Shown one piece after another: positions 33,117 through 36,779 of a DNA stretch of 64,000 nt. The notes beneath the pieces are model-generated. The model saw nothing but the letters and a program-made list of their open reading frames with translations, made no database searches and was not told the DNA's origin. Positions within the stretch are counted from its first letter, which is position 1; each line of letters starts with the position of its first letter. The stretch comes from a virus, in the IMG/VR virus record IMGVR_UViG_3300045988_126932, positions 23,140-87,139 of that record, one strand, 5' to 3'. The position numbers and the translations under genes are program-made.

Positions 33117-33887
33117 TTAATCATCCAACTCCATTCCTGCCTCGATCCACATGCCAGATATAAATTTAGGCATTGGAGCAAGTTTAAATACATTCTTCTC
33201 ATGCATTTCATCAATGATCTGTCTCACTCCTTTATCCTTGCATTCACCTGTTCTGATATATTCATCCAACACTTCGTATGTAAATCCAAGATTATCTTCA
33301 TCTGTCTTGCCACATAACCCATCAGTAGGCGTTTTTTCGATTAACTCTCTTGGAAGTCCCAGAACTTTACCAATTGCTTTAACTTCTGTCACAGTCAGAT
33401 CACTTAATGGACTAAAATCTCCAGCCGAATCTCCATATCTTGTTGTATATCCGACCCAATCTTCAGATAAATTACATGTATTTGCTACTCTTCCATTCAT
33501 ACTCTGTGCAAAAGCATACAATGTAACCATTCGGATACGAGCAGGTAAATTTGTAGCACTCTGTTTACTCCATTTACCACCTAATTCATCTCTGATTTCA
33601 TGTTTAATATCTCTGCAAGCATTAAAAATATTTACTGTATAATTCTCAATGCCTAAGTGATTACACAACATCTGAGAATATTCAATATCACTCTGCACAC
33701 CCTGTGGCATCATAACTCCAATTACTCGATCCTTACCGAGTGCTTCTACACACAAGGCTGCAACCACTGATGAATCCTTGCCTCCTGAAATTCCTACAAT
33801 GGCATTACACCATCTTCCATTAACTTTAAACCAATCTCTGATCCACTGTACTAATCTGTCTTTGGTTTCTACTGCATTAAAACTCAT
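33117..33887 (-). CDS. nadE: NH3-dependent NAD+ synthetase
   Basis: The PP-loop motif GISGGKDSS is present and the overall length and similarity fit NadE. Confidence 0.8.
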   Translation of the reverse strand: MSFNAVETKDRLVQWIRDWFKVNGRWCNAIVGISGGKDSSVVAALCVEALGKDRVIGVMMPQGVQSDIEYSQMLCNHLGIENYTVNIFNACRDIKHEIRDELGGKWSKQSATNLPARIRMVTLYAFAQSMNGRVANTCNLSEDWVGYTTRYGDSAGDFSPLSDLTVTEVKAIGKVLGLPRELIEKTPTDGLCGKTDEDNLGFTYEVLDEYIRTGECKDKGVRQIIDEMHEKNVFKLAPMPKFISGMWIEAGMELDD

Positions 33888-33904
33888 GTTTTATATCTCC
33901 TCTC

Positions 33905-35374
33905 TTAAAATTCTCCTTCGTTTAACACTCTTCTAATCTCCTGTAATGACTGCTCTTTTACCAACTTGCCATCTCTAAATACTGTCTCAAGTAGGTTATT
34001 CATTGGAAGATTTTCTGAATTATATCCATCTTTAAATGTCAATTTGCCGTCTGATCCTTTATAGACATGACATAAACCTCTCTGAGATTTCTTAAATCCG
34101 CCATCTTTGGGATTCTTAAAAATTGGATATGGTCTGCCATTAATCTCACAATATGTTGCTTTGATGCAGCTACTAAATGTATCTCTTGTAAATGGTTTCA
34201 AAACTCCATCTTCTTCAATGCACTGGAATGAGAATGACCCGACACCAAGTGCAACATTGCTTGCTGCGAATCCATTTTTCTCTAAGATGTCATAAATCTG
34301 CTCACATCTCTGCACTGTAATTGAATCTCCGTAAATTGCTTTTATATGAGGATCTAAAACTTTATATCCTTTACTGTTTGTCGTTCCCCCAAACTCTTCC
34401 CATAACTTGAATACCGTTCTGGTTACTACATCTACACAATCTCCTGAGTCTCCTCTGACAAGAAAACATCCATTGTGATTCATGATCTCATTCTTGAGTT
34501 TTGGGAGAATATTCTCTACAACATTCCAATAATCATATGAATCTAACACTGCTGAGAAACTTGTGTTTGGATAAATCTCTGTCAGTAATCTCTTAATTAA
34601 TGTTTCTTCATCTCCATCAATTGCATAATTACTACACATAACTGAATGTTCAGTCGATGGACTACCAAAAGCAACTGGCTCTTTCGTACAATCACAGTTA
34701 TAATTTCTCTCTAAATACGGAATTGTTGGAACTGTTGCTGTATTCAAGAATGATAAACACCATCCTGCCCCTGCTTTAACCGCAGACTGTAAACATTCTT
34801 CGCCACGAAAATCGAAAGCCCCTAATGCTTTAGATTTTGGAATATCGTCATCACAAGTCATTTCATAGAACTTGTTAACAATCTGTCTGTATGTATGTCC
34901 AACAGTTGCAGCGATCATCGGATGCCACATTTCTGCGGAAATTAAGCTTTCTAATGCCTGTGGTAACCATGCAAAATCTTTATGTGTATTCTCAATACTA
35001 AACATCGGCACATGCATTGGTGCTAAAGTTCCTTCAGGAAGAGCCTTAATCTCAATTGGAAGATAGCCAAGATCATATAAATCTTCGATTTTCTGTAATC
35101 CATATGTACCTTCTCCAAGAGCTGCATCCATTACTGTCTTATAAGTACCAATTGCTTTGTTTCTATATTCAAAGAAAAAATACTCATTAAAATAATCGAC
35201 CAAATACTCTTTAATGAATCCTTGTAATCCAAACATGGCTACTTCATTCCATCGTTTTACTCTGCTCATACGTGGAGTAAAATAAGAAACAGATTTTGTA
35301 ATACCTTTTGGTAACATTTCAGCATGAACTGCTTTATAAAAATCAATTAATAACATTGGATTTGTCTGTTTCAT
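33905..35374 (-). CDS. nicotinamide phosphoribosyltransferase family protein (Nampt/NadV, or Namat-like)
   Basis: Several segments match NAMPT: LPIEIKALPEG, FDFRGEEC, VRGDSGDC and NSKGYK. The start overlaps the Prs-like gene by 4 nt. Confidence 0.8.
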   Translation of the reverse strand: MKQTNPMLLIDFYKAVHAEMLPKGITKSVSYFTPRMSRVKRWNEVAMFGLQGFIKEYLVDYFNEYFFFEYRNKAIGTYKTVMDAALGEGTYGLQKIEDLYDLGYLPIEIKALPEGTLAPMHVPMFSIENTHKDFAWLPQALESLISAEMWHPMIAATVGHTYRQIVNKFYEMTCDDDIPKSKALGAFDFRGEECLQSAVKAGAGWCLSFLNTATVPTIPYLERNYNCDCTKEPVAFGSPSTEHSVMCSNYAIDGDEETLIKRLLTEIYPNTSFSAVLDSYDYWNVVENILPKLKNEIMNHNGCFLVRGDSGDCVDVVTRTVFKLWEEFGGTTNSKGYKVLDPHIKAIYGDSITVQRCEQIYDILEKNGFAASNVALGVGSFSFQCIEEDGVLKPFTRDTFSSCIKATYCEINGRPYPIFKNPKDGGFKKSQRGLCHVYKGSDGKLTFKDGYNSENLPMNNLLETVFRDGKLVKEQSLQEIRRVLNEGEF

Positions 35375-36207
35375 AAATCTAACACCTCAACTTTCTCATG
35401 TTCTTTTGTAAAAATACTACGTGTTGTAAATACTTTTTTAAACAAACTATCTGCCTTTAGTAATTCGCCATCAAGAATTGTGTTTTCACAGTGAGTAACG
35501 TACAAATACATATCTTTACAACCGTATTTGTTTAATTCTTTTGATCCATAATAGAATGTGCCACCCTTACTACAAATATCATCAATCATAAGGATTGCCG
35601 TATTTTCGTCTAATTTATCTGTATCTCCATGAATCTCAATACCAAAAATTTCTCCTGTCTTCCAATCACGATTTTTAATTCCATAGACAATCGGATAATC
35701 ATCTGATACAAATTCAGAATATCTTTTTAGTGATCCGCTATCTGGGAAATAAATTACAAGATTTCTTGATGGTTCTGCTTTAAGGACTTTGCTACAAGTT
35801 TGTGTAATATATGATGCTCCACGGATTACTTCTACATGATCAATCAATGCAGTAGATACATCGGAATGTGGATCAGTTACAATAACTTGTACAAATCCCA
35901 GACTATTAATAATTTCTGCAAAATATTTTAATGTAAAGCATTCGTCTGGCTCTTTTACTCTGTCAAATCTTGCATTTGGTATATACGGCATCACTAATGC
36001 TTGTTGTAACCACGGAAAATGTTCTTTAATATTTTTAGAAATACACAACAAAGAAAACAACTCTTGATCTGACTCATATAACCATGTGATATACACTGTC
36101 TTGTTTTCTATGATTTCTTGAGATATCACACCTAACGAAAAATCAATTTTCTGTGTTCCGTCTGGGAAAGACTTAGGAATAACCGCCACTCCACCAATAC
36201 TAATCAT
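35371..36207 (-). CDS. ribose-phosphate pyrophosphokinase homolog (Prs, or Adps-like ADP-ribose diphosphokinase)
   Basis: Prs motifs are present: VMPYIPNARFDR, DPHSD and the PRTase loop ILMIDDICSKGGTF. At 278 aa it is shorter than canonical Prs. Confidence 0.7.
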   Translation of the reverse strand: MISIGGVAVIPKSFPDGTQKIDFSLGVISQEIIENKTVYITWLYESDQELFSLLCISKNIKEHFPWLQQALVMPYIPNARFDRVKEPDECFTLKYFAEIINSLGFVQVIVTDPHSDVSTALIDHVEVIRGASYITQTCSKVLKAEPSRNLVIYFPDSGSLKRYSEFVSDDYPIVYGIKNRDWKTGEIFGIEIHGDTDKLDENTAILMIDDICSKGGTFYYGSKELNKYGCKDMYLYVTHCENTILDGELLKADSLFKKVFTTRSIFTKEHEKVEVLDL

Positions 36208-36221
36208 TTTTCATCACCTCT

Positions 36222-36779
36222 TTATTCATTAATTACTTCAATTTGACACATTTTCATTGCTTCGAGTGCGTTCTTGTGACTCTCTGGTGTTACGCCTGCG
36301 CAGCACGATGCATCTACAGTAATCTTTGCCTCTGGTAATACCGATTTAATTAACATCGCATTTGAAATAACACAAATATCGGTACATAATCCAACTAATG
36401 TAATTTCAAGATCTGAAGCATATTTGTATTCTCTCCTAAAATGATCTGCTAATCTAAATGAACCAAATGTAGGTTTATTAAAATACCTTCTTACACTGTC
36501 AAATCCTCTTTCTTCAATAACTTTCAAAATATCTTTATTGATATACCATCCATCTTCAAGAAAAATACAATGTTTTACTGGTAGTTTTATTCCCTCTTGT
36601 GTATCTAAATAATCTTCATCATGTGTGTCTTTTGTTACATACAAATCTCCATCTTCATCAAAATTACGAATTTTCTCAACTACTTTAGGTACGATTTCTT
36701 GTGCCTCTTTCGTTCCTAAACTCCCATCAATAAAGTCATTCTGCATATCAATGACAACTAAAATTTTATTATTATCCAT
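36222..36779 (-). CDS. pncA: nicotinamidase (PncA, isochorismatase family)
   Basis: The N-terminal VIDMQNDF, a metal-site-like KDTHDED and KHC, and a catalytic Cys (GLCTDICV) together match PncA. Confidence 0.65.
   Translation of the reverse strand: MDNNKILVVIDMQNDFIDGSLGTKEAQEIVPKVVEKIRNFDEDGDLYVTKDTHDEDYLDTQEGIKLPVKHCIFLEDGWYINKDILKVIEERGFDSVRRYFNKPTFGSFRLADHFRREYKYASDLEITLVGLCTDICVISNAMLIKSVLPEAKITVDASCCAGVTPESHKNALEAMKMCQIEVINE

Follow-up and report, generated by a model that had tools for sequence, protein, structure and literature searches.

A gut-phage cassette of PncA, Adps, Namat and NadE homologues with a probable role in rebuilding NAD+ by way of nicotinic acid and deamido-NAD

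Within IMG/VR record IMGVR_UViG_3300045988_126932, a gut phage genome of ~160 kb, we analysed a stretch of 64 kb (hereafter the window) carrying four contiguous genes that encode homologues of the nicotinamidase PncA, the Prs-like enzyme Adps, the NAMPT-family transferase Namat (written Namat* for the window protein and its variant-pocket relatives) and the NAD synthetase NadE. We consider it probable, from the sequences and their genomic context, that this cassette is a deamidating, four-step variant of the phage anti-defence pathway NARP1, which would rebuild nicotinamide adenine dinucleotide (NAD+) via nicotinic acid and nicotinic acid adenine dinucleotide (NaAD, or deamido-NAD). In the proposed route, PncA would hydrolyse nicotinamide to nicotinic acid, the Adps homologue would use ATP to pyrophosphorylate ADP-ribose (ADPR) to ADPR pyrophosphate (ADPR-PP), Namat* would join nicotinic acid and ADPR-PP to give NaAD and pyrophosphate (PPi), and NadE would amidate NaAD with ATP and NH3 to NAD+; its inputs, nicotinamide and ADPR, would be the two products of NADase defence systems. 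The proposal builds on gene identities, the integrity of catalytic residues, a switch in the substrate pocket and the linkage of the genes, all of which were observed directly. We also lean, a little less firmly, towards Namat* being a new nicotinate:ADPR-PP ADP-ribosyltransferase that makes NaAD and, with PncA, Adps and NadE, constitutes a fourth, "deamidated" pathway, widespread in large phages of gut and other metagenomes and present in anaerobes such as Clostridium as a chromosomal operon regulated by NrtR.

The Prs-like and NAMPT-like pair at the centre of the cassette had been likened to Adps and Namat in an earlier, sequence-only reading of this DNA, and sequence scores and, for the NAMPT-like protein, Foldseek TM values group it with these enzymes and not with true Prs/Nampt. 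The best PDB matches of Namat* are the SPbetaL1 Namat structures 9w5x/9w5w (E=1e-115), with human NAMPT at 1e-51 and Xanthomonas Nampt at 5e-49, and its nearest characterised phage relatives are the validated Namats of FADO and SPbetaL1 (42-44% identity). An AlphaFold2 (AF2) model of the protein (pLDDT 94.9) matches Namat with a Foldseek TM of 0.91-0.93 and a root-mean-square deviation of 1.5-1.9 Å, and human NAMPT with a TM of 0.86. Namat* is the only type II phosphoribosyltransferase in the window, where it represents the NAMPT/Namat family (NAMPT_N domain) and where no PncB-family nicotinate phosphoribosyltransferase (NAPRT) occurs; it clusters with Namat and not with KVP40-type Nampt, and retains the equivalents of the catalytic Namat residues D13, Y15, F189, R192, H245, R306 and D308. 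It is a member of one sister clade to validated Namat. The Prs homologue aligns end to end with the validated SPbetaL1 Adps (36% identity, E=5e-45), against only 2e-12 for the best solved Prs, and scores under every NCBIfam Prs cut-off. Its residues K178 (equivalent to SPbetaL1 K162), R180 and D209-D210 are conserved across 150 homologues, K178 in at least 97%; the mutation K162A kills SPbetaL1 Adps, and validated Adps made no product from the Prs substrate. The Prs homologue is predicted to be of the Adps type, converting ADPR and ATP to ADPR-PP and AMP.

The two outer genes also appear to encode intact enzymes. The best solved relative of PncA is the P. horikoshii pyrazinamidase/nicotinamidase 1ilw (E=2e-12), and in an alignment to this structure the catalytic triad D11/K102/C136 and the metal ligands D51/H53/H70 are retained, each conserved in at least 97% of 88 unique cassette homologues, from which we predict a nicotinamidase that releases nicotinic acid and NH3 from nicotinamide. 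NadE is of the single-domain, NH3-dependent type with a conserved PP-loop (S34-G-G-K-D-S39, matching SGGxDS) and is predicted to be an NAD+ synthetase acting on NaAD, ATP and NH3. Its second-best solved relative is Francisella NadE (3fiu, E=2e-30), an NMN synthetase (PMC3376133), which raises the idea of an amidated detour wherein NadE would convert nicotinic acid mononucleotide (NaMN) to nicotinamide mononucleotide (NMN) and an unidentified NMNAT would complete NAD+. We regard this as scarcely plausible: the best relatives of NadE are archaeal-type NAD synthetases (2e18, E=1e-36), of which the characterised member is an NAD synthetase without NMN synthetase activity (PMC3376133); NMN synthetase function co-occurs with NadM (PMC3376133), and no NadM/NMNAT is present in the window or in the variant loci described below; and the detour would be pointless compared with the direct Nampt reaction.

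The evidence for a change of substrate starts in the nicotinamide pocket. In Namat, this pocket is formed by F189, R192, D215, A242, R306, D13' and Y15', with Asp215 hydrogen-bonding the amide (PMC12774641), and the corresponding residue of human NAMPT, Asp219, sets the specificity of that enzyme (Khan et al., PMC7096376). Five of the seven residues are identical in the window protein, while Asp215 is replaced by Ala213 and Ala242 by Ser240. Since a search for close homologues returned near-identical proteins only, diversity was sampled by searching 1.84 billion proteins, from which 150 representatives of 50%-identity clusters were retained for a pocket survey. Positions 215 and 242 covary almost perfectly among them, with D215/A242 in 95 and [A/S]215/S242 in ~55. 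Counted by clade, position 215 is Ala or Ser in 62/62 variant representatives and Asp in 110/110 classical ones, and position 242 is Ser in 62/62 and Ala in 109/110, respectively. An unbiased scan for class-discriminating columns ranked 215 and 242 at the top, followed by 187, 239, 185, 184 and 213, all of which line the pocket. The Asp215-type pocket that is required for the reaction of nicotinamide with ADPR-PP to NAD+ is hence absent from the window protein and from its whole clade.

The second line of evidence is linkage. We sorted 186 loci from IMG/VR, GenBank phages, metagenome contigs and bacterial contigs (one genome per species) by pocket type and searched them with hidden Markov models for the four families. 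All four genes co-occur in the window lineage and in relatives down to 47% Namat identity; they stand together in ~70 of 79 IMG/VR loci as well as in numerous bacteria, also where protein identity is down to 35-60%, and this arrangement is not due to chance. When loci were dereplicated at 90% Namat identity, PncA or NadE was adjacent in 49 of 54 variant and 0 of 42 classical lineages, and at 70% in 16 of 18 and 0 of 11; Fisher p-values for these counts are descriptive only, because the variant pocket is one clade, the co-occurrences are not independent and shared ancestry may contribute. Adps, on the other hand, is equally common in both classes. The classical set includes the validated systems of SPbetaL1, FADO and P. 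foliorum, and in its viral part (13 independently retrieved loci plus SPbetaL1 and FADO) Adps is present and PncA/NadE never are. The same division holds in bacteria, where the 25 variant loci (Clostridium spp., Oscillospiraceae, Desulfovibrionaceae and one Nanoarchaeia MAG, i.e., metagenome-assembled genome) have PncA adjacent in 23 cases and NadE in 14, and the 55 classical loci (Flavobacteriia, Paenibacillus including the validated P. foliorum, and Halobacillus) have neither. The linkage is kept when gene order changes, as in PncA-Namat*-NadE-Adps (L093) and Namat*-x-NadE-Adps (L107), and in one case (P0170) Namat* and NadE are fused into a single protein with PncA immediately upstream. It is this persistence across deep divergence, the phage-bacterium boundary, rearrangement and fusion that gives the linkage its weight.

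Pocket and linkage together bear on a simpler account, namely that ordinary NARP1 (nicotinamide and ADPR-PP to NAD+) sits beside independent PncA and NadE genes that boost the Preiss-Handler route of the host. Adps and Namat homologues are indeed present, translationally coupled and catalytically intact, the SPbetaL1 Namat mutant D215A is still active, its nicotinamide-dependent NAD+ synthesis being ~8-fold lower (PMC12774641), and phage pncA and nadE have been annotated before as auxiliary metabolic genes (PMC11662467). Nevertheless, we judge this account distinctly unlikely, as the amide-binding Asp is missing clade-wide and a second pocket residue has changed alongside it, PncA and NadE accompany the variant almost always and the classical Namat in no lineage, which would be unexpected under independent accretion, and the Namat*-NadE fusion exists. 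A co-expressed nicotinamidase would moreover compete for the substrate of an ordinary Namat, while a co-transcribed PncA fits a nicotinate-using transferase, because it destroys nicotinamide and supplies nicotinate. The deamidated route that the sequence-only reading had put forward, i.e., nicotinic acid and ADPR-PP to NaAD and then NadE, accordingly gains support from the loss of Asp215, the covariation of Ala242, the linkage and the fusion, from which we infer its chemistry.

The main remaining uncertainty is whether the donor is ADPR-PP or phosphoribosyl pyrophosphate (PRPP). With PRPP, the cassette would perform a Preiss-Handler-type salvage, in which the Prs-like protein makes PRPP, Namat* acts as a NAPRT (nicotinic acid and PRPP to NaMN), the NadD of the host forms NaAD and the phage NadE finishes the synthesis, and ADPR is no substrate at all. 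The pocket switch and the PncA/NadE linkage suit nicotinate use equally well in this case, validated Namat keeps PRPP activity in vitro (PMC12774641), bacterial hosts have an essential NadD so that the cassette need not encode one, NrtR also governs ordinary pncA-pncB-nadD-nadE operons (PMC2330246), and the NCBIfam model that best matches Namat* is named "nicotinate phosphoribosyltransferase". Five observations favour ADPR-PP, and they lead us to consider the PRPP-based salvage unlikely. Members of the variant clade keep the adenine clamp (TRD in 62/62, an aromatic residue at 392 in 61/62, R40 in 54/62), and bacterial variant proteins carry the exact published Namat signature GSYTYQYNTRD with no insertion; an enzyme using PRPP would have no need to preserve this clamp. 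The partner of Namat* is an Adps-family protein throughout (L129, L130 and L105 lack an adjacent Adps), and validated Adps yielded no product from the Prs substrate. A Macro-domain gene (PF01661; phrog_335 "phosphatase") separates Namat* from NadE in 24 variant loci (among them L025:7470-7979, L078:7440-7928 and L068:7506-7973), some with a Namat* 94-98% identical to that of the window, where the slot is empty; the Macro-domain protein Adpp of NARP1 operons, as in Vibrio phage Gary, converts ADPR-1″-phosphate to ADPR that feeds Adps (bioRxiv 10.64898/2026.01.28.702374), and the protein of the variant loci resembles this Adpp. Clostridium intestinale DSM 6191 has a chromosomal operon Adps-PncA-Namat*-NadE-NrtR (L109:5639-10129; another case is L102), no additional gene apart from NrtR recurred among the 16 variant lineages surveyed, and ADPR is the anti-repressor of NrtR (PMC2330246). 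Finally, NadD was found in no variant locus, either in the survey of these loci or by phmmer, unlike in known Preiss-Handler operons and jumbo-phage pncB-nadD-nadE clusters; this favours ADPR-PP, because the PRPP route needs NadD between Namat* and NadE, and the fusion of these two proteins likewise suggests consecutive steps.

For the window lineage itself the donor preference is least secure. Its R38 aligns to SPbetaL1 R40 (the SCL stacking residue, which in Namat is Arg, Lys or Tyr at the third loop position) in a loop of identical length, and in the SCH motif (GSFSFQ-CIEEDGVLKP-FTRD) positions 1-6 and TRD match and the position-3 aromatic F381 is kept, while an insertion that makes the motif ~9 residues longer than that of SPbetaL1 displaces position 7. 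In the AF2 model this insertion is predicted to be an ordered beta-hairpin (385-388/391-394, pLDDT ~91-92). We rejected it as a defining feature of the variant, since bacterial and some phage members combine the switched pocket, PncA and NadE with a canonical SCH.

Several points weigh against the deamidating route as a whole. The SCH clamp of the window protein is broken by the insertion and has no clear equivalent of Tyr396, which speaks for PRPP. The window has Ala at the key site, and in human NAMPT it is D219S alone that is reported to "switch the substrate affinity", D219A abolishing activity (PMC4919578). The variant pocket arose once, as a single clade on a neighbour-joining tree, on which ground several independent origins of the switch were rejected. 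Eleven of the 25 bacterial variant loci have no adjacent NadE, two Desulfovibrionaceae MAGs (L129, L130) carry PncA-Namat*-NadE with no Adps within 7 kb, and on a metagenomic phage contig (L105) Namat* stands as an orphan, all its partners missing. The substrate switch is read from residues and gene context, and the search for NMNAT/NadD covered only 64 kb of the ~160 kb genome. Lastly, the route would cost one ATP more than NARP1. The longer path could possibly be favoured by its irreversible, ATP-driven last step or reflect descent from a bacterial recycling operon. The suggestion in the sequence-only reading that it suits a host which rapidly deamidates nicotinamide found no support, and the cassette's own PncA argues against it, if anything. 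Given that the module is chromosomal in Clostridia under the ADPR-responsive NrtR, its general role is probably the recycling of ADPR and nicotinamide, in a pathway not confined to phages. We infer the substrate of Namat*, the NaAD intermediate and a part in counter-defence from these comparisons, the last of them by homology and by analogy with the Macro/Adpp-like accessory genes of relatives.

The cassette loci vary in several further respects. Flanking ORFs of 110, 129 and 689 aa were rejected as components, because their synteny is limited to the phage lineage and neither bacterial nor distant loci have them. A complete cassette on the contig of the Nanoarchaeia MAG (L146) could be a virus or a binning artefact. 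The cassette is mosaic: among phages with a Namat* 99-100% identical to that of the window (L004-L007, L008/L010/L011), PncA identity falls into two groups, at 98-100% and at 63-65%, and Adps identity ranges from 71 to 99%; alleles appear to recombine within the cassette. Many Namat-family proteins are 550-1100 aa long and match in 2-3 stretches or in two tblastn pieces (P0123, P0139, P0157, P0167, P0198 and others), also in the GenBank Bacillus phages Kirov, Tsamsa and Thrax4, which points to inteins or introns. P0160, with which a scan of IMG/VR produced nothing of use, has an N-terminal HNH_3 and AP2 region. Directly beside Namat or Namat*, a protein of 136-142 aa with a DFDDT(L) motif occurs in L004:7470-7877, L033:7488-7895 and 19 other variant loci as well as in the classical loci L091, L098, L136, L147, L153 and L154 (phrog_1238 "phosphoheptose isomerase"). 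It gave no Pfam match and no PDB sequence match, and resembles an uncharacterised HAD-like NARP1 accessory, possibly a phosphatase acting on an ADPR derivative. In L009:7491-8288, L030:7491-8480 and L093:7549-8493 the slot between Namat* and NadE holds a Cys-rich, nuclease-like protein with a DUF2726 or treble-clef zinc-finger, which suggests a mobile insertion of the homing-endonuclease type.

In the window, the four genes are tightly packed on the minus strand and ordered for transcription as PncA, Adps-like, Namat-like and NadE (Table 1). Profile searches upheld the families named in the sequence-only reading, the genes lie where it had placed them, and the 4-nt overlap that it noted for the Prs-like and NAMPT-like pair was confirmed (ATGA; sequence TTATGAAA). 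The remaining junctions measure 14, 17 and 2 nt, the 17-nt gap being that between Namat* and NadE, and Shine-Dalgarno motifs are good. The NAD+-dependent DNA ligase noted earlier at 1-1030 was confirmed (PF01653, E=6e-48, plus an Nlig-Ia NAD+-binding domain). So was the lack of a recognisable NMNAT or NadD: no Pfam match to NMNAT, NadD, NadR, NadM, Nudix or PF01467 was obtained among ~70 window proteins of at least 120 aa, and phmmer with E. coli NadD found nothing in the 64-kb window, in a search that had power, as shown by its detection of nadD close to two Flavobacterium loci unrelated to the cassette. A PnuC-like transporter was likewise not detected by Pfam among the window proteins. In a promoter/terminator scan, promoter-like sites were less numerous than in shuffled controls and the minus strand showed no terminator, so that the scan defines no operon boundary. 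Upstream of PncA, an imperfect inverted repeat (CTCGTCA-TATT-TGACGGG) that is not followed by a T-run lies in the 76-nt gap at 36780-36855; the terminator scan missed it. Megablast of the cassette against GenBank phages returned no match, and the nearest record there, at 62% protein identity, comes from a human-faecal phage without annotation; the lineage of the window phage is known only from metagenomes.

Table 1 Cassette genes and Namat* sites in the 64-kb window.
Feature	Position	Strand	Details
PncA-like, 185 aa	36222-36779	minus	First cassette gene; PF00857 isochorismatase, E=3e-18
Prs/Adps-like, 278 aa	35371-36207	minus	TIGR01251, 87 bits (below 113-bit cut-off); phrog_619
NAMPT/Namat-like (Namat*), 489 aa	33905-35374	minus	NF006629, 432 bits (cut-off 405); PF04095 + PF18127; phrog_448
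NadE, 256 aa	33117-33887	minus	Last cassette gene; TIGR00552, 190 bits (cut-off 64); PF02540, E=2e-57
Ala213 codon of Namat*	34736-34738	minus	Equivalent to Namat Asp215 / human NAMPT Asp219, by alignment to SPbetaL1 Namat
Ser240 codon of Namat*	34655-34657	minus	Equivalent to Namat Ala242, second switched pocket residue
Insertion within Namat*, residues 385-394 (CIEEDGVLKP)	34193-34222	minus	Inside SCH adenine-clamp motif

Compared with known systems, the cassette stands closest to NARP1, which calls for a Namat homologue within 10 genes of Adps and with which it shares adjacent, translationally coupled Adps- and Namat-family genes (Osterman et al., bioRxiv 10.1101/2024.02.11.579819) and, in Namat*, the SCL stacking Arg, the Phe392 equivalent and the TRD of the adenine clamp. 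It differs in the Ala and Ser that replace Asp215 and Ala242, in the SCH insertion of the window lineage, in having PncA upstream and NadE downstream, neither of which occurs in any classical NARP1 locus sampled, and in the predicted four steps with NaAD, not NAD+, as the product of the transferase. NARP1-AP, i.e., NARP1 with the Macro-domain Adpp (bioRxiv 10.64898/2026.01.28.702374), is similarly an extended operon, and close relatives of the window phage carry a Macro gene in the cassette, whereas the PncA/NadE extension of the window would alter the pyridine branch and not the ADPR branch. The Preiss-Handler pathway, of which NrtR-regulated operons are known (PMC2330246), resembles the proposed route in having PncA first, NadE last and NaAD as an intermediate, and in that the bacterial module is under NrtR; the window, in turn, has neither a PncB-family NAPRT nor NadD, and Adps and Namat* are predicted to replace the middle steps, with ADPR in place of PRPP and ATP as the ADP-ribosyl source. 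NARP2 (Nampt and NMNAT, phage KVP40) and NARP3 (PnuC and NadR; PMC13464706) also restore NAD+ in phages, but the window has no NMNAT and its transferase clusters with Namat, and neither PnuC nor NadR is in the window, for which reason NARP3 was rejected as the same system and is unrelated. The prs-nadV operons of gamma-proteobacteria and Cytophaga (PMC2330246) combine a Prs paralogue, a NadV/NAMPT gene and NrtR in one operon, although those listed are without pncA and nadE and the sampled relatives from Flavobacteriia and Paenibacillus have the D215/A242 pocket.

Jumbo-phage pncB-nadD-nadE clusters have been annotated by KEGG only (PMC11662467), and the NrtR regulon paper has prs-nadV and pncA-pncB-nadD-nadE operons, not the hybrid (PMC2330246); the NrtR regulons listed by Rodionov et al. 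2008 do not include the C. intestinale operon. The descriptions of NARP1, NARP1-AP, NARP2 and NARP3 (the Osterman, RyDEP and aRES preprints and the Namat structure and NARP3 papers) do not bring up PncA, NadE, nicotinic acid or NaAD in connection with these pathways, and combining Namat or NARP1 with nicotinate, NAD synthetase, deamido-NAD or nicotinamidase retrieved nothing in the full-text searchable literature, subscription-only titles lying outside it. A nicotinic acid/deamido-NAD route for NARP1-type rebuilding has thus probably not been described before in that searchable literature.

If the proposal is correct, it adds the reaction of nicotinate and ADPR-PP to NaAD to NAD+ biochemistry, a fourth NAD+-reconstitution strategy to phages, and to bacteria a new NAD+ salvage route that recycles ADPR rather than PRPP. 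The pairs Asp215/Ala242 and Ala-or-Ser215/Ser242 would represent a compact natural specificity switch, and about one-third of the 50%-identity Namat-family clusters nearest the window protein have the variant pocket; detectors that define NARP1 as Adps beside Namat would then probably merge two chemically different pathways. The Clostridium NrtR operons would further suggest that recycling of ADPR to NAD+ is also a housekeeping or stress pathway of bacteria, which bears on the origin of NARP1, and possible uses would lie in the engineering of phages against NADase-defended hosts and in the enzymatic synthesis of NaAD or NAD analogues.

Other genes of the window give a broader picture of the phage. 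About 400 bp downstream of the cassette, beyond a 110-aa ORF that follows NadE, lie a SPFH/Band-7/flotillin-like protein of 486 aa (31256-32716; PF01145, PF15975) and a coiled-coil protein of 244 aa whose N-terminus bears a hydrophobic segment (30507-31241), together a flotillin-like membrane-scaffold pair that is unusual for a phage. Three more genes relate to nucleotides or RNA, namely those for a nucleoside 2-deoxyribosyltransferase-like protein (19592-20062; PF05014, E=1e-7), an RlaP RNA-repair nucleotidyltransferase (21191-22111; PF10127, E=8e-25) and a DHH/DHHA1 phosphoesterase (23315-24265). Encoded in the region 39360-61431 are two Bro-N proteins, a calcineurin-like phosphoesterase, a PemK/MazF-like toxin (PF02452, E=2e-15) and a phage integrase (PF00589, E=1e-13), the last of which suggests that this ~160 kb phage is temperate or integrative. 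A protein 97% identical to the window Namat* (P0056) is deposited at NCBI on a 35-kb contig under Anaerostipes sp. Marseille-Q3525, which hints at a Lachnospiraceae host; a GC content of 33% and strong Shine-Dalgarno motifs would fit such a host.

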